Notes: a model not told the origin generated them from the sequence alone. A stretch of 64,000 nucleotides of DNA from Alphaproteobacteria bacterium (GCA_028871895.1 JAGWLZ010000017.1:15933-79932); one strand, 5' to 3'. Counted from the first letter of the stretch, positions 340-11,456 are shown. Numbers and translations are program-made.

Positions 340-480
340 CAATCGGTGCCACCCGTCACAACAGATTCAGCCGTTTACGAGTGCATGGCACCACGCAGCT
401 TCTCCACTGGTGCCAAATATTCCGATGTGCAGACCGGCAACCGGCGCCACTTGGTGCCGGAGCTTTTCTCTTGCCTTCGC
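340..480 (+). other. Candidate origin of transfer (oriT)
   Basis: Intergenic, just upstream of the relaxase. Imperfect IR CCGGCGCCA-CT-TGGTGCCGG at 441-460, followed by TTTTCTCTTG^CC (putative nic 473/474, resembling MOBP YATCCTG^Y). Repeated GGTGCCA/TGGCACC motifs at ~345-415. Confidence 0.45.
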
Positions 481-2049: not shown

Positions 2050-2373
2050 TCAGTCGACCGGATTCCAGATGACGGCGAAGACATCCTCGTCATCCTGACC
2101 GGCAGCTTTGCCGAGATTGGCGTAGAGCTTCTTGGGCCCGAAAGCGGGATCGCAAAGGCTCAGGCTCACATACTCCTTGCCCGAGGCTTCGCCGGTGCGG
2201 CACCAGGCCGCCCCTATTTCCGTCCCACGTGAGTACACCCGAAAGTCGGGTTGCTTGTCGCCGTTCTTTGCGGAGTTCGGCAGGATATCGATCGGCGCCT
2301 TCACCGACAACGTCTTGAGAGAACCGTGATAAGCTCCGTCCTTACCGCGCGTCACATGTCCGATGGCTGGCAT
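2050..2373 (-). CDS. DUF736 family protein (msi110-like)
   Basis: MPAIGHV...G.L.TL...DKQPDFRVYS..TEIGAAW......GKEYVSLSLCDPAFGP..LYANL...DEDVFAVIWNP. SD GGAGG precedes ATG 2373. Confidence 0.85.
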   Translation of the reverse strand: MPAIGHVTRGKDGAYHGSLKTLSVKAPIDILPNSAKNGDKQPDFRVYSRGTEIGAAWCRTGEASGKEYVSLSLCDPAFGPKKLYANLGKAAGQDDEDVFAVIWNPVD

Positions 2374-2401
2374 AGTTGCCTCCGTTTGAAGTCGCGGGAG
2401 A

Positions 2402-2627
2402 CCATTCTCCCTTGCGATGGCGTAACCGCTCATGGGCGCTCTGGATGACCGGCGAACCTGAAGGGCCGCAGCACCGCGAAGGACCGGAGCCCGCAAACTA
2501 TTTTGAGCGCAGCGCCGCGCGAGGAATGTTCGAAGCGCAGCGAAGAACAGGGGAAAATAGTTTGCGGCGACGGTTTTGCCGGCGGGCCAGCGCCCATAGG
2601 TTCCGCGCCAAAAGCAAGGGAGAATGG
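2402..2627. repeat. ~225-nt nested foldback (ssDNA promoter/ssi-like) upstream of DUF736
   Basis: Perfect 14-bp IR at 2402-2415/2614-2627, 9-bp IR at 2432-2440/2589-2597, perfect 14-bp IR at 2491-2504/2554-2567. GCGCAGC mini-hairpins in the loop. Confidence 0.7.
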
Positions 2628-3048
2628 CTCGTCCCGCAAATTCGGGAGGTGGACATGGCAGCCGTTGGACAAATGAAGCGCAACGCAGCGTAGGAGATCA
2701 ACGGAATTCTCCAACGACCATTGTAGGTGCAGACCTGCAAAGATCGACCGCCGAACAGACGCAGAATGGCGACCGGCAATTCGCGTTGAGGCGTGTTGCC
2801 GCGGACCGGAAATCTGGCCGGTCGCGCCGGACACGAAAGCTTCTGCGAAGGAATATATGTCCGTGCGAACCGTTGCGGCGCGATATTCGGACCCAGAAAG
2901 CGATACGCTCCATCTCGACCAAAGCCGCCGGTCCCCGACAACGCCACAATGCTCTGGAATCCGGCCGACCGAGCCTTCCACTGTAACCCGCGACGTTTCG
3001 GCGGGCGCGGGGTCGGCGGCTGCGATGGGGGACAATTCGGCAAGCAAG

Positions 3049-3082
3049 ACGAGGGGCGGCAGATCGACCCACCGCCCCTCGT
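3049..3082 (-). terminator. Hairpin/terminator downstream of parB-like gene
   Basis: 11-bp perfect stem ACGAGGGGCGG/CCGCCCCTCGT with a weak T-tract. Confidence 0.45.
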
Positions 3083-3104
3083 TCGCTGCACCTGCTCTGC
3101 ATCG

Positions 3105-4871
3105 CTAGGCGACTACGCGCATGTCCTCCACGCCGTTGTCGGACGCGGTCATCTCGGTTGGCGCATCATCTGCGCCTTTGAGACTACAGGTAGGTTCCGC
3201 CAAATCAGCGCCGATGCTGCGGGACGGAAACGTCATCCAGCCGGGCGTCCAATCGACCTTGGCCCGACCGTTGGCGCCCGTAAGGCAATCTTGGACGATC
3301 TGTTTCTGCGTCTTGGTTTTCTCCGCAATATTGGCGCGGGCAACGTTGTGTCCCGCCACATCGGCCAGCACGGCGTTGACGGTCGCGCGGTCGCGTATGA
3401 GGTCGAAGAATGTTTCGTCCGGCTGCCAATGTGTCCTGGCGTCCACGTTGAGGTGCGTGCCCGCGACCTCCACCGCGCCGCTGCCTGCGGCCAAGGTTTC
3501 GGCCATCCGGCAGGCGGCGATGCGCAAGACTTCCTCATTGGAAAGGGTCAGCAACCGCGCGAACACGGCAACCGCGCGGTCCTCGTTGGCTAGTGCGAAG
3601 TCGTCGTTCCGCGGCAGTTCGAGAGGTGCGTAAGCCTCGCCGCATTCCTTCTCGAATGCCACCTGCGCCGGGCTGTTCGCAATGCTCGCCCGGATAGCAT
3701 CGGTGCGGCTCGACTGGCCGTCGGCTTTGATGGACCAGTTACCCGATGCGGCAATCATGTGCGCCACCGCCAGCCGAAACGTCACGGCAGGGTCGGCAAT
3801 CAACGCCAACCGCACCGCGGCATGACGGTGCAAATCGAGATAGTTCTGCATCGCCTGCGTGATCGTGGGAAGTCCCGCCGACACGCCACTGCCGCTCAGC
3901 TTCTCCTGTTTGCGGGCCTCACGTTCCTCGGCCTTGGCGAGCTTTCTGGCTTCCTTCTGCGTCAGCCAGCCATCATGGATTTCGACATCGCCCTTGTGGG
4001 AAACGGTGATGAATACCTTGCCGCCCTTTTTCTTGGGCATCTTCACATGCTCCCATTGGGAGAAGTGCTGGCCTACCTCCATGATCTCGACAGCGATCCA
4101 TCCGGCCTTGAGAAGCGCATCCCGTTTGGCGGCAATCGCCCCGTTCTGCAAGGTCCAGAACAGGTCGGTATCCGCAAAGTAACTCTCCTTGCCGAAGAGG
4201 TCCTCCACGATCTGCCCGGTGTAGTCCTTGAGGGCAAACAGCGCCACTGTTGTCGAGATATCCTGCCCGCCGAGCAACCACTGCCTGATGTACGTGCCAC
4301 GCGGCGCGCCCTGTTGGGGATCGGCAAACAGTCGTAGCCACTTGCGCTGCTGGCTGGCCCTGGCAAGCGTCAGTTGCCGCGCGGTCTGGTCGTCGATGTC
4401 GCCTGCCGTGTAGAGTTCCCGTACCTTGGGAAGCAAGTTGCCCAGCGCCAGCCGCTGTTTCACCTGCGCCGTGGTCATGGCGAAGGTGGCGGCGATATCC
4501 TCGACCGTCTCGCCCTCCTTGATGAGGCGCACGAAGGCCAGATGCTCTGTCATCGGCTCGGCGCTACGCCGGGCAAGATTTTCGAGAAGCGAGGCCTCGA
4601 CGGCGGCGGCATCGCCGCCGTCCTCCATGACGGCACACGGCGGATCGTCCACGTCGCCCACTTCCTGTTTGAGGGTCTTGAGGGCGAAGAAGCGCCTTCT
4701 ACCCGCCACTACACCGAACTTGCCGTCCTCGGGCCGGGCAATGAGCGGCAGCAAAATGCCGAGCTTCCTGATGCTCGGCAGGATGTCGGAGACATCCGGC
4801 GGCGGCTCGCGGTGACGCATGTTGCAGGCGGAGATTTTGAGCTTACTCAAGGGGATGTGTTCAATGTTCAT
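3105..4871 (-). CDS. Long ParB/RepB/Spo0J-family protein (leading-region type)
   Basis: N-terminal ParB domain (SIRKLGILLPLIARP, VVAGRRRF, ASLLENLAR) plus HTH. ATG 4871 has SD AGGAGG. Confidence 0.85.
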   Translation of the reverse strand: MNIEHIPLSKLKISACNMRHREPPPDVSDILPSIRKLGILLPLIARPEDGKFGVVAGRRRFFALKTLKQEVGDVDDPPCAVMEDGGDAAAVEASLLENLARRSAEPMTEHLAFVRLIKEGETVEDIAATFAMTTAQVKQRLALGNLLPKVRELYTAGDIDDQTARQLTLARASQQRKWLRLFADPQQGAPRGTYIRQWLLGGQDISTTVALFALKDYTGQIVEDLFGKESYFADTDLFWTLQNGAIAAKRDALLKAGWIAVEIMEVGQHFSQWEHVKMPKKKGGKVFITVSHKGDVEIHDGWLTQKEARKLAKAEEREARKQEKLSGSGVSAGLPTITQAMQNYLDLHRHAAVRLALIADPAVTFRLAVAHMIAASGNWSIKADGQSSRTDAIRASIANSPAQVAFEKECGEAYAPLELPRNDDFALANEDRAVAVFARLLTLSNEEVLRIAACRMAETLAAGSGAVEVAGTHLNVDARTHWQPDETFFDLIRDRATVNAVLADVAGHNVARANIAEKTKTQKQIVQDCLTGANGRAKVDWTPGWMTFPSRSIGADLAEPTCSLKGADDAPTEMTASDNGVEDMRVVA

Positions 4872-4962
4872 GTCGGTCCTCCTGACCAAGGTTTGAGAGA
4901 ACCGGCCTCGTCCGTGACGTCCTTCCATGACTCTGCGGGCGAGGCCGGGCGGTGCCTCGCAC

Positions 4963-5415
4963 CTATCCGGCGCCCTCATGCGCCGGAATGACGTTGGACC
5001 AATCGGAGAGGGTATAGCGCCGTCCCTCCGCATCGATCCGGATGTTGGGATCGTTGAGGTCCGCCCCATCCGTATCGTAATCTCGGACCTCCACACGGGC
5101 ATAACCGCAATCGCTGGCGACGTTCTGGACGACACCGCCGGAGACGATTACGATCACGCGTGGGCCTTCGCCGCGCTCGGTCAAGGCCGCTGGAATCGGA
5201 AGTTGGGTAACCGCATCGCTCCACAAATCCACGTCGTCGCCCACGGCCACGGCGTCCACGAAGGTGGAGCCGCAATCGTCCAAGGACTCCCATTCACTGC
5301 TCGCGTTTGCCTGCTCGACGGCCTTCGTCAAAGCCTCGTCAAGCGTGTCCGCGTCCACGACTTCGGTATGGGCGTAGTAGGCAGCATAGCCGAGCTGGAC
5401 CGTGTAGCGGGTCAT
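4963..5415 (-). CDS. Highly acidic 150-aa hypothetical protein
   Basis: ATGA overlap with the ardC stop (5412-5415) indicates translational coupling. Protein MTRYTVQLGYAAYYAH... has no recognised family. Confidence 0.65.
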   Translation of the reverse strand: MTRYTVQLGYAAYYAHTEVVDADTLDEALTKAVEQANASSEWESLDDCGSTFVDAVAVGDDVDLWSDAVTQLPIPAALTERGEGPRVIVIVSGGVVQNVASDCGYARVEVRDYDTDGADLNDPNIRIDAEGRRYTLSDWSNVIPAHEGAG

Positions 5416-6353
5416 GACACGGCCTCCCCCTCGACGGCGGCAAGCTCGCGGAAACCGAGGATGTAATCGGCCACTTTGCTTGCTTGGCTTGCGGCATAGA
5501 AGATGGCGCGGCTGTCGGACTTGAGGATTTGAAGCCACGATCCGAGGTAAACGGCATGGCGCACTTGCGGTTCGATGCCGAACTGGGCGCATAAGAACGC
5601 GCTTGCCAATTCCGCGATCAATTCTTCGCGCCCATACGCCGTTGAGCCGAAGCGATGTTGCAGGTTGCGGTTCAATCGCGATGGGTGCGCTGTGGCGTGT
5701 GCTGCCTCGTGAAGCAGAGTGCAAAGCCGGTCGGCTTCGTTCACAAAGGCTGAGCGCGGCGGCATGCGGATGAAGTCTTCGCGCTGGTGGTAATAGGCCT
5801 CGTTGCCGCCTTCTCGGATGACAATTCCGGTCGCTGCGATCAGCGCCTCAACTTCGGGCCATGTCTCGCTCGTAGCGGCATTGGTAGACGATTGCGGCAG
5901 GGAAGCGATATGGGAAGGCAGACCTTCCGTCTGCTCCACGTTGAACACGATGAAGCGCTTGAGAAACGGCACGGCGTGCGGCTCGTCGCTCTCTTGGTAC
6001 GCCCGTTCCCGCTCCTTCTTGGGGATGAACCGGTCAGCATAAAAGATGGCGGTGCCGCGCTCGCCCTTGCGCACATGGCCGCCCAACCCTGCACATTGCC
6101 GGAAGGTGAGCCATTCCTGCGTGGCGAAGCCGCGCGCCAGCACGGCCTCCCATAAGATCAAAATGTTGATGCCGGAATACGCGCGACGTGAGGCGGCACT
6201 GCGGGGAAGTCCAAGGGCAACGCCCGAGTCTTTCCATGGCTTGACCCACGGGACGGTGCCTTGCTCAAGCTCGCAGACAATACGGTTGGTGACGTCTTCA
6301 TAGAGCGCAACACGGCTTGCGCCGGTGGCCGGTTGTTCAAGCATCTGGCGCAT
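5412..6353 (-). CDS. ardC: Antirestriction ssDNA-binding protein ArdC (DUF1738 plus zincin-like domain)
   Basis: PWVKPW, RAYSGINILILW, WLTFRQ..GG.VRKGE, FNVEQTEGL, LLHEAAHAT.H, Y..EELIAELASAFLC, H..YL.SWL..LK.D.RAIF.AAS.ASK. Confidence 0.92.
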   Translation of the reverse strand: MRQMLEQPATGASRVALYEDVTNRIVCELEQGTVPWVKPWKDSGVALGLPRSAASRRAYSGINILILWEAVLARGFATQEWLTFRQCAGLGGHVRKGERGTAIFYADRFIPKKERERAYQESDEPHAVPFLKRFIVFNVEQTEGLPSHIASLPQSSTNAATSETWPEVEALIAATGIVIREGGNEAYYHQREDFIRMPPRSAFVNEADRLCTLLHEAAHATAHPSRLNRNLQHRFGSTAYGREELIAELASAFLCAQFGIEPQVRHAVYLGSWLQILKSDSRAIFYAASQASKVADYILGFRELAAVEGEAVS

Positions 6354-6388
6354 GCGGTGCCTCCTGTTCAGGTCCCCGCCCCAGGCTT

Positions 6389-6665
6389 TTCCCCGGATGC
6401 AGGGCGGGCGGCGAGAAGCGACCGGAGAGCCCCGCTGAGGGAGGCGCGCCGCACCCCCCGGGGTCCCTGTCGCGCGCAGCGCGACGGGGTGGGGCTTAGG
6501 GCCGGAACGAAGTGGAGGACCGCGCGAAGCGCGGTTGCGGCGCGCCGCAGCGGGGCTAGAAGGGAGCGCCGCCTGCCCTGCAGAGGGGAACGGCCAAAAG
6601 AAAACTTCAGCGCGCGGCAGGTAGGCGCGTAGCGGCAGCGTGCGCGCGCGTACTGCCGCGCGCTG
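6389..6665. repeat. Nested foldback (ssDNA promoter-like) upstream of ardC
   Basis: IRs at 6389-6394/6585-6590, 6398-6413/6567-6582 (15/16), 6428-6437/6548-6557 and 6443-6453/6536-6546. Inner GNA-triloop hairpins at 6469-6485 and 6519-6535. Separate 13-bp IR at 6608-6620/6653-6665. Confidence 0.72.
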
Positions 6666-6735
6666 ACCGTACTGAGTTCGCTGAAAATGTCAGGAAGCGG
6701 TCATCGGCACAGGCGCTGTCGACGTACGCACGACG

Positions 6736-9794: not shown

Positions 9795-11456
9795 TTACCG
9801 TCCTTTGGTCTCCCGAATTGAGATCGAAGCAGACGCAGGCGCCGCTCCATCAAATTCTGGCATCGCTGCGATCACATCGGAGTCGACATAAGCCTCAAAC
9901 CGCCGGAAATTTTCGCGGAACATTCGAACAAGCTTCCGAGCTTGGGCGTCATAGGCGGCTTTGTCGGCCCATGTGTCACGAGGGTTCAGAATTTGACCTG
10001 CGACATGCGGCACGGCGAGCGGCACGTTGAACCTGAAATGGGGGTCAACGCGCATTTCCGTTTCGGCGAGAGCGCCGGACAGGGCCGCATTCAGCAAAGC
10101 GCGGGTGACGTTGATAGGCACGCGCAAACCCGTACCAAACGGTCCTCCCGTCCAGCCGGTGTTGACGAGCCAGCAATCGGCTTGGTGGCGGGCCATCAGC
10201 GCGCGCAGCAGATTGCCGTATTCGCACGGATGACGCGGCATGAAGGGTGCGCCGAAACAGGTCGAGAAGGTCGGCAGCGGGTCTTTGCCAAGGTTCTTCT
10301 CGGTGCCCGCCACCTTCGCTGTGAAGCCCGATAGAAAGTGATACATTGCCTGTGACGGCGTGAGGTGCGCGATCGGCGGTAACACTCCGAAAGCATCAGC
10401 CGTGAGCATGATCATATTCTTCGGGTGACCAGTACGTCCGGTAGAAGAGGCATGGCGGATAAAATCGATCGGATAAGCGGCGCGGGTATTTTCGGTATAG
10501 CGGGCATCGTCCAGGTCGAGCGCGCGTGTATCCTTGTCGAACACCACGTTCTCCAGAATGGTGCCAAAGCGTTCGGTCGTGGAGAAGATTTCGGGTTCGG
10601 CCTTGCGATTGAGTCTGATAACTTTGGCATAGCAGCCGCCTTCGATGTTGAAGACGCCGTTTGGGCCCCAGCCGTGCTCGTCATCGCCAACCAAGGTTCG
10701 CGAGGCGTCCGCCGACAGAGTCGTCTTGCCCGTACCCGAAAGACCGAAGAAGATTGCAGCGTCGTTCGATGCGCCGACGTTAGCCGAGCAATGCATCGAC
10801 ATCACCCCTTTGGTCGGTAGCAGATAATTCATGATGGTGAAGACCGATTTCTTAATCTCGCCTGCATAGGAAGTGCCACCGATCAGGACCATGCGACGAG
10901 TGAAGTTCACTGCGATTACCGTCGAGGACGCGCAGCCATGCCGTGTGGGGTCGGCCGTAAAACCCGGAAGGTCGATCACGGTGAAAGTCGGCGTGAATTC
11001 CGTTAGCGCGTCGGCATCCGGCCGGATCAGCAGATTGTGGATGAACAGCGACTGCCAGGCGTGTTCGGTGACCACCTGTAACCTAAGGCGGTAGGCGGGA
11101 TCGGCGCCGGCAAAAAGATTTTGCGCGAACAATTCGCGCCGTTCGGCGTAGTCCATCATGTCACGATGTAACAGATCGAATTTCTCGGGCACCATCGCCT
11201 TGTTATTGGCCCACCACACGTTATCGGCGGTGTGTGCATCCTTGACGATGAATTTGTCCGGCGCTGAACGGCCGGTGTGCTTACCTGTGGACACCACCAG
11301 CGGACCTGCCGCGGCCAGATGGCCCTCCTCGCGCCGCAGCGCCATCTCGTACAACGCCGTCGGCCGCAAATTCCAATAAACGCGCTTGAGATTGTGGAAA
11401 CCAGCCGCCTCCAGTCCGCATGCACTCGGACGCACGGAATCCTCGAATCCCATCAT
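9795..11456 (-). CDS. pckA: Phosphoenolpyruvate carboxykinase (ATP)
   Basis: [64 protein letters not shown]. Confidence 0.96.

Follow-up and report, generated by a model that had tools for sequence, protein, structure and literature searches.

Single-stranded-DNA promoters are, to our knowledge, the only route by which anti-defence genes of a conjugative element can be expressed before the second strand exists, and the only plasmids in which we know them to have been demonstrated are those of the IncF and IncI groups in E. coli. In pESBL and F, one such promoter is present per leading-region operon (PMC12672017; bioRxiv 10.64898/2026.01.09.698686). Class 1 comprises Frpo1 and Frpo2 of F together with ssi1-3 of ColIb-P9/pESBL; its members are long imperfect hairpins located on the template strand of the leading-region genes, with the hairpin base some tens of nucleotides from the start codon and an A/T-rich apical stem. 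In the Frpo region of F upstream of ssb, for example, the T-strand folds into a hairpin of about 300 nt with such an A/T-rich apical stem, the distance from the hairpin to the start codon being about 47 nt. The promoters of class 2 (ardA, klcA) and class 3 (M.EcoGIX) of pESBL and F are hairpins of unrelated sequence in front of anti-restriction genes and were validated by 5' RACE in transconjugants (PMC12672017). As the three classes are unrelated in sequence, single-stranded-DNA promoters are polyphyletic, and they are often located before ardA-type genes.

Further relevant signals are the phage G4 origin and ssiA of RSF1010, as well as the sso of rolling-circle plasmids and of ICEBs1. These are stable single-stranded-DNA hairpins with GNA or GNNA mini-hairpins; SSB does not occupy them, and a primase or RNA polymerase is recruited there (PMC13037366). 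The promoters of the phage N4 virion RNA polymerase are likewise DNA hairpins with a 3-nt loop of the G-N-A type (GGA or GAA) on a single-stranded template; they are, however, short 5-bp hairpins used by a phage-encoded polymerase. Finally, a covarying motif directly upstream of DUF736 genes has been listed as ncRNA cluster #378,112, 'upstream of DUF736' (bioRxiv 10.64898/2026.10.21.760802).

The DNA analyzed here, referred to as the window, is a stretch of 64,000 nucleotides from an Alphaproteobacteria bacterium (GCA_028871895.1 JAGWLZ010000017.1:15933-79932). Its gene neighbourhood is that of the ICEMlSymR7A backbone, in which the DUF736 gene is msi110 and adjoins rdfS-traF-msi107 (PMC8627217). 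All neighbouring genes are on the minus strand and comprise ardC (5412-6353), an acidic ORF, a ParB-like gene (3105-5135), a spacer of about 445 nt followed by the foldback studied here, the DUF736 gene, an HTH_17 (rdfS-like) gene, traF (S26 peptidase) and a gene for an SLT transglycosylase. The gene for the relaxase, a protein of 658 amino acids with a DUF3363 domain, lies mostly beyond the start of the window and overlaps its first 287 bases. A sequence search of the PDB with the DUF736 protein gave no match, and no polymerase gene of the N4 type was seen in the ICE. The approximately 445 nt between the stop codon of the ParB-like gene and the foldback (2640-3105) are non-coding and are not conserved among relatives. 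Directly after this stop codon a G+C-rich hairpin without a T-run is present at 3048-3083.

Upstream of the DUF736 gene, a repeat search detected three perfect nested inverted repeats of 14, 9 and 14 nt (2402-2415/2614-2627, 2432-2440/2589-2597 and 2491-2504/2554-2567). An earlier note on this DNA had described these repeats at exactly the same coordinates and had placed the end of the foldback 28 nt before the DUF736 start; the ATG of the ORF at 2050-2373 is indeed 28 nt from the outer arm. The note had also taken the foldback to be 225 nt long (2402-2627). This region is paired, as proposed, and is part of a larger structure: in minimum free energy folds of the extended element and in alignments of arm against arm the base pairs extend outwards to about 2379-2649, giving a self-pairing DNA element of about 280 nt as a whole. 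When folded as DNA, the segment 2395-2635 reached -67.8 kcal/mol (z -5.4) on the plus strand and -66.3 kcal/mol (z -5.5) on the minus strand. None of 200 dinucleotide shuffles attained the fold energy of the segment, so that the folding check suggested earlier came out in favour of the foldback. With RNA parameters the z-scores were -6.0 (plus) and -6.7 (minus). Since the foldback of the window is strand-symmetric, this copy alone carries no information on the strand that is relevant. The features are listed below; R1 denotes a covariance model that represents the central domain only and was built on the strand complementary to the gene.

441-475, plus strand: oriT-like inverted repeat and nic-like TCTCTTG|CC (nic-like sequence at about 467-475), between the SLT gene and the relaxase gene
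2050-2373, minus strand: DUF736 gene, msi110-like, putatively served by the foldback (Pfam PF05284, E 1.6e-25)
2379-2401, plus strand: basal 5' flank, complement of the DUF736 Shine-Dalgarno sequence (CCTCC at 2379-2383), partner of 2628-2649 in MFE folds and arm-against-arm alignments
2402-2415, plus strand: 5' arm of P1, CCATTCTCCCTTGC, perfect 14-nt inverted repeat with 2614-2627
2432-2440, plus strand: 5' arm of P2, ATGGGCGCT, perfect 9-nt inverted repeat with 2589-2597
2449-2583, plus strand: conserved central domain, R1 match with 83 bits
2463-2490, plus strand: conserved purine-rich block, GGGCCGCAGCACCGCGAAGGACCGGAGC, family consensus GGGCCGnAGCGnAGyGGAGGACCG from alignments
2491-2504, plus strand: 5' arm of P4, an A/T-rich helix, perfect 14-nt inverted repeat with 2554-2567
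2507-2513, plus strand: first GCGCAGC mini-hairpin motif with GNA triloop, read from the sequence
2518-2526, plus strand: conserved unpaired block, CGCGAGGAA, nearly invariant in the core alignments and the wider family
2535-2541, plus strand: second GCGCAGC mini-hairpin motif, read from the sequence
2550-2567, plus strand: GGGGAAAA block and 3' arm of P4, from inverted repeat, alignment and covariation
2569-2582, plus strand: GACGGTTTTGCCGG, its CGGT pairing with ACCG at 2483-2486 (helix 3 of R1); holds the family-wide TTG-containing motif
2589-2602, plus strand: 3' arm of P2 and CCCATAGGTT, where a T closes the duplex and the next base, an A, is unpaired opposite a 4-nt loop
2614-2627, plus strand: 3' arm of P1, GCAAGGGAGAATGG, perfect inverted repeat
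2628-2658, plus strand: far flank, inverted copy of the Shine-Dalgarno and start region of DUF736 (GGGAGG...CATGG)
6484-6544, plus strand: R1-related module in the foldback upstream of ardC, GGGCCGGAACGAAGTGGAGGACCG[GCGCGAAGCGCG]CGGTTGCGG (23.2 bits, E 7e-4 in the window)

The far arm of the foldback is an inverted copy of the DUF736 Shine-Dalgarno sequence; in relatives the copied stretch further includes the start codon and as many as about nine codons of DUF736. A Shine-Dalgarno sequence with an ATG at 2645-2658, which opens a plus-strand ORF of 12 codons, was considered as the start of a divergent gene and rejected, as no conserved ORF was found there in 46 loci; both the signal and the ORF are spurious because the far flank is the inverted copy of the DUF736 start. 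The two GCGCAGC motifs that the earlier note had seen in an apical loop are present on the plus strand, as stated there. What had been called a loop is, however, a conserved structured domain.

A paralogous foldback is located on another contig of the same genome, and all three of its stems show compensatory changes (in P1, for instance, CTCGGC/GCCGAG). By a protein-guided scan, the element was found upstream of DUF736 in 44 of 52 loci, and R1 gave 72 matches in the fetched loci. In the alignment of these 72 members 96.3% of the cells are paired, as compared to 75.0% in shuffles. Compensatory changes were observed in 16 of the 18 modelled pairs (in P4, 9 of 10), amounting to 234 cells where 62 were expected, and the covariation score was 0.53 versus 0.16 in shuffles and at most 0.13 when the partners were slid against each other. 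The long outer arms, which R1 leaves uncovered, were evaluated with custom scripts: in 22 loci the cognate 3' arm was the best partner among 46, and the mean score was 55.9 for cognate and 36.1 (sd 12.4) for non-cognate arms. RNAalifold on a plain MAFFT alignment returned only 21 pairs because the variable arms are misaligned in it; arm-against-arm alignments and the core covariance model were therefore used instead. The stems thus covary among homologous upstream regions, the absence of which would have spoken against the reading proposed in the earlier note, and the structure is under selection.

On which of the two strands the structure is selected was judged from wobble pairs and loop motifs in the relatives. 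In the core helices, 58 G.T pairs on the strand complementary to the mRNA stand against 4 A.C, in an alignment fitted to the model of that strand. Isolated transition mismatches in the arms, scored symmetrically, gave G.T on the mRNA-complementary strand in 31 versus 14 cases, and in 23 further, more distant loci the same count was 34 versus 10. Wobbles on the sense strand are hence the minority in every count, which argues against selection on that strand. As the arms tolerate all kinds of mismatches (57 transversion contexts versus 45 transitions), the wobble polarity is to be regarded as moderate, not overwhelming, outside the core. Hairpins with GNA triloops occur 21 versus 0 and 30 versus 6 times on the mRNA-complementary and the other strand, respectively, and GCGNAGC occurs 73 versus 1 times in 46 loci and, in a second count, 43 versus 5 times. 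The middle base of GCGNAGC varies between C and A, while the flanking G and A are fixed. RNA-type GNRA or UNCG loops are enriched on neither strand. The GCGNAGC mini-hairpin is extraordinarily stable as DNA and far less stable as RNA. It binds SSB poorly and occurs at the phage G4 origin, in RSF1010 ssiA and in the N4 virion-polymerase promoters (PMC13037366). Both the wobble pairs and the mini-hairpins favour the strand complementary to the DUF736 mRNA, i.e. the plus or template strand. The fold energies were also considered as strand evidence and dropped: in 45 of 46 loci the plus strand gives the more stable fold, the mean advantage being 9.75 kcal/mol, and dinucleotide shuffles give 8.2, which makes the asymmetry an effect of composition, the sense strand being C/T-rich.

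The element is not associated with a single gene family. It is located on the strand opposite its gene in 72 of 72 R1 matches, the ATG follows 71-115 nt from the core, and clustered copies are co-oriented. Copies precede DUF736 and also ardC, ardA and SLOG/YAcAr (DUF2493-type) genes, which are typical of leading regions, and several can occur in one conjugative element. In the window itself, the foldback upstream of ardC (6354-6700, z -7.6) shares with the one upstream of DUF736 the sequence GGGCCGnAnCGnAGyGGAGGACCG...CGGTTkCGG and thereby the purine-rich block found at 2463-2490. The other R1 matches in the same genome are a third ICE copy before DUF736, a full-length copy before ardC and a copy before SLOG/YAcAr. 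The copies of this genome are at C60:10087-10213, C42:18384-18541, C42:15780-15894 and C30:2062-2189 (loci L056, L058, L060 and L059), and the genome contains at least three further conjugative-element backbones with hairpin copies, before DUF736 (twice), SLOG/YAcAr and a second ardC. Two additional R1 matches lie off a DUF736 start, one about 800 nt upstream (L054, 2050-2202, 93 bits) and one being a short module of the ardC type (L009, 1165-1230).

Among 151 alphaproteobacterial genomes, one per family, R1 matches were found in 12 including the own genome. The genes downstream of these matches encode DUF736, ArdC, YAcAr/SLOG, ArdA (twice) and one small unknown protein. A blastn search of plasmids with the window's own copy gave no match; the plasmid members of the family were reached through the DUF736 protein together with the covariance model. 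By this route, the element was found before DUF736 in an Agrobacterium Ti plasmid, S. meliloti pMl2, the Ensifer plasmid pOV14c, P. putida pTTS12 and an Enterobacter plasmid, and the family is also present in Citrobacter and Cupriavidus plasmids. With blastn, 627 plasmid records were found to contain the Ti-type copy and 122 the gammaproteobacterial type, and in nearly every record the matched position is unannotated. Ti plasmids are among these records, as are large conjugative plasmids from Pseudomonas, Citrobacter, Klebsiella and Salmonella. In pTTS12 and the Enterobacter hormaechei plasmid (L081 and L082, 3230-4000) the element occupies a gap of about 770 nt between a block of DUF932, ParB and a small ORF and the DUF736 gene. 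In the gammaproteobacterial element, three hairpins with GCA triloops are found on the non-coding strand, and plasmids of Citrobacter, Klebsiella, Salmonella and E. coli contain nearly identical copies of it. In Rfam 15 no gathering-score match was obtained for the window or eight related loci, and up to E 10 the matches were at chance level only. The family is unannotated and absent from Rfam 15, one preprint listing a DUF736-upstream motif as an RNA.

With regard to the direction of transfer, the spacer between slt and the relaxase gene (287-537 in the window, 10220-10470 in the related locus L055) was aligned from 28 loci. On the plus strand it consists of an invariant GATGTGCAGAC block, a covarying inverted repeat and then CTTT-(T/A)ATCTTGCC, with the nic-like consensus (T/A)ATCTTG|CC. 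MOBP oriTs have an inverted repeat 5' of YATCCTG|Y on the nicked strand, and the spacer shows this arrangement, which makes it a well-conserved candidate for the oriT. A nick at 467-475 would mean that slt, traF, rdfS, DUF736, parB and ardC enter the recipient first and that the plus strand is their template. An independent system, the Ti-type, MOBQ plasmid pOV14c, agrees with this: the interval that separates traC from traA contains an inverted repeat and ATAATTGCGCCCT on the strand that also carries the element, and transcription of DUF736 is directed towards this oriT. In the F plasmid the leading-region genes are transcribed towards oriT as well (PMC11541004). By analogy, the plus strand of the window is predicted to be the transferred strand, with DUF736 on the leading side; because this assignment is based on the likeness of motifs and the position of the nick is itself predicted, the identity of the T-strand is to be read as a prediction.

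Conventional promoter signals were searched for in 2300-3150. On neither strand was a sigma-70-type promoter or a terminator found, and no canonical -35/-10 combination reconstituted at a conserved spacing in the hairpin was detected, be it in the window, across the wider family or among the gammaproteobacterial copies, the hosts of which have canonical sigma-70 preferences. The statement of the earlier note that no canonical -35/-10 is obvious therefore holds. Two features of the 3' arm are family-wide. One is the TTG-containing motif at the 3' edge of the core; the other is an internal loop at 35-60 nt from the start codon, where the non-template arm has the sequence CCAT and continues with unpaired A-rich bases (CCCAT/A/GGTT at 2593-2602 in the window). 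These two may take the place of promoter boxes, and the duplex that ends in T next to an unpaired A (2589-2602) is a candidate for a fork-junction-like mimic of -12/-11 (-10). A sigma-70 or Caulobacter-type promoter in the 3' arm was considered by comparison with the Caulobacter promoter consensus, since arrangements such as TTGCCGG-N12-CATAGGTT (window), TTGCGGC-N12-GCTAGAAG (before ardC) and TTGACGC-N12-GATAGGTC (Kordiimonas copy) occur. The arrangement seen in the window is not kept in the wider family or the gammaproteobacterial copies, and across the wider family the TTG motif is separated from the CCAT/A loop by anything from 15 to more than 40 nt; this promoter was therefore rejected and is at best a weak lead.

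When taken together, the element resembles a single-stranded-DNA promoter in anatomy and placement. Like Frpo and ssi of class 1, it is a long imperfect hairpin on the template strand, one per operon, whose base lies some tens of nucleotides from a start codon and whose apical stem is A/T-rich. The template is the predicted transferred strand, the large stem-loop is supported by its stability (z -5.4) and covariation and is assigned to one strand by the polarity of wobble pairs and loops, and the GNA/GNNA mini-hairpin motifs of ssi and sso signals are found on the strand to be copied. With classes 2 and 3 the likeness is one of description, the DUF736 element being known from its sequence. In contrast to Frpo/ssi, it has no canonical -35/-10, and its most conserved part is the apical multi-hairpin domain, whereas promoters of the Frpo type carry their boxes in the stem. 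The hosts differ, too, being ICEs and plasmids with MOBP-like RlxS and MOBQ relaxases as opposed to IncF and IncI plasmids. With filters switched off, the best R1 match in 18 kb of the F leading region scored 9.8 bits (E 0.25), so that the DUF736 element does not belong to the Frpo/ssi sequence family. The earlier note had suggested that it may be a distinct alphaproteobacterial class; a restriction to alphaproteobacteria does not apply, as members occur in Pseudomonas, Enterobacter, Citrobacter and Cupriavidus plasmids.

Our preferred reading, to which we assign a probability of roughly 0.55, is that the foldback acts on single-stranded DNA as an initiation signal or promoter through which genes are expressed early, its activity being predicted. 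When the ICE enters a recipient, the transferred plus strand would fold into the hairpin of about 280 nt, with the template for the DUF736 ribosome-binding site at its base and the conserved domain with the GNA-triloop mini-hairpins at its tip. The hairpin would thus offer an island of duplex at which RNA synthesis could start on DNA that is still single-stranded, and the stem, which extends across the 5' UTR and the first codons, could supply the downstream duplex that is held by RNA polymerase. The product might be the DUF736 mRNA, possibly including rdfS, traF and slt, or a primer, or both. With synthesis of the complementary strand the signal would be lost, making expression early and self-limiting. 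We infer that the hairpin forms on single-stranded DNA in vivo, that it is used by RNA polymerase rather than by primase, and where transcription would start. For DUF736 itself, the association with the element may point to a role as an anti-defence or establishment factor. It is also conceivable, though distinctly tentative, that the family constitutes a new and very widespread class of single-strand initiation signals, unrelated in sequence to the described ones, in which the apical domain is recognized in place of sigma-70 boxes in the stem. The recognizing factor would be, for example, a primase, or RNA polymerase at a fork-junction-like loop. Furthermore, the palindrome could work twice, firing the gene on the incoming T-strand and, once the element is established as double-stranded DNA, silencing it in read-through mRNA by sequestering the ribosome-binding site.

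If active on single-stranded DNA, the element would extend zygotic induction to ICEs and to other relaxase families. It would then also be a marker for leading regions and for the polarity of transfer where oriT is not known, would nominate DUF736 and SLOG/YAcAr proteins as early establishment factors, and would represent a promoter-like element that works without recognizable sigma-70 boxes.

Among the alternatives, a signal on the same single-stranded T-strand that is not a promoter is a serious rival, since conservation is highest in the apical domain and SSB-resistant mini-hairpins abound there; we nevertheless regard it as rather unlikely. The element would then be an ssi/sso-type primase site for synthesis of the complementary strand or a structural roadblock that delays this synthesis. 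The evidence for strand polarity and for the T-strand applies equally to this case, the canonical promoter boxes are absent and the conserved apical domain could be a protein recognition site. GNA/GCGNAGC mini-hairpins with poor SSB binding are hallmarks of the G4 origin and of RSF1010 ssiA (PMC13037366), and in F, ssp2 is reported to act as a roadblock and Frpo transcripts as primers, so that such elements may combine these roles (bioRxiv 10.64898/2026.01.09.698686). A Toprim-domain, primase-like gene adjoins one copy, being located directly upstream (82-1407 in L060) of the hairpin that precedes SLOG/YAcAr in the C42 element. Priming or a roadblock would, however, require neither a fixed distance upstream of a start codon nor recurrence before each operon, nor a stem that, in four unrelated gene families, takes in the ribosome-binding site together with the first codons. 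In this respect the G4 origin, ssiA and sso signals differ, as they are not tied to a gene start, whereas the element studied here always abuts a start codon and its stem includes the translation start.

Less probable still is a structured 5' leader of the DUF736 mRNA, thus a function of the sense strand, which would control translation through a sequestered Shine-Dalgarno sequence and start codon. The outer stem does pair the SD/AUG region with its far-upstream copy, the sense strand has two conserved anti-SD-like CCUCC blocks, and perfect Watson-Crick covariation alone cannot distinguish the strands. The covarying motif reported as ncRNA (bioRxiv 10.64898/2026.10.21.760802) belongs here as well; compared by description, cluster #378,112 is probably the same object as the foldback. 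It was presented as an RNA motif tied to DUF736, whereas we find the polarity of the opposite strand and copies that also precede ardA, ardC and SLOG genes. Wobbles (58 vs 4, 34 vs 10 and 31 vs 14) and GNA loops (21 vs 0 and 30 vs 6) favour the other strand, GNRA/UNCG loops are not enriched, a conserved promoter or other conserved sequence upstream of the fold was not found and no Rfam match exists. The occurrence before several unrelated gene families likewise makes a gene-specific riboswitch or leader unlikely.

A cis-antisense RNA of plus-strand sequence, comparable to FinP, would account for the polarity of the G.U pairs towards the plus strand and for the overlap with the Shine-Dalgarno sequence, the start codon and the first codons, as its promoter would lie within the 5' end of the gene and the transcript would block the ribosome-binding site. 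We consider it very improbable, since such a promoter would be needed inside the coding start of four unrelated gene families and no promoter-like or terminator-like signal was found on the plus strand (2300-3150). Moreover, a near-perfect RNA duplex of 100 bp would be unusual for an antisense regulator, and GNA triloops have no special stability in RNA (PMC13037366). The least probable alternative is a palindrome of double-stranded DNA, serving as site for a dimeric regulator or partition protein or as a cruciform with no single-stranded role, for although the repeats of the window copy are perfect and strand-symmetric and a ParB-like gene lies upstream, compensatory changes over arms 100-200 nt apart, an asymmetric central domain and strand-biased wobbles and loops are not expected from it.

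Independently of these readings, a direct repeat is present on the plus strand, consisting of GCGATGG at 2414-2420 in the basal 5' arm and GCGACGG at 2566-2572 at the 3' edge of the core. In most relatives the consensus GCGATGG occurs at both sites, which could represent a protein-binding site.
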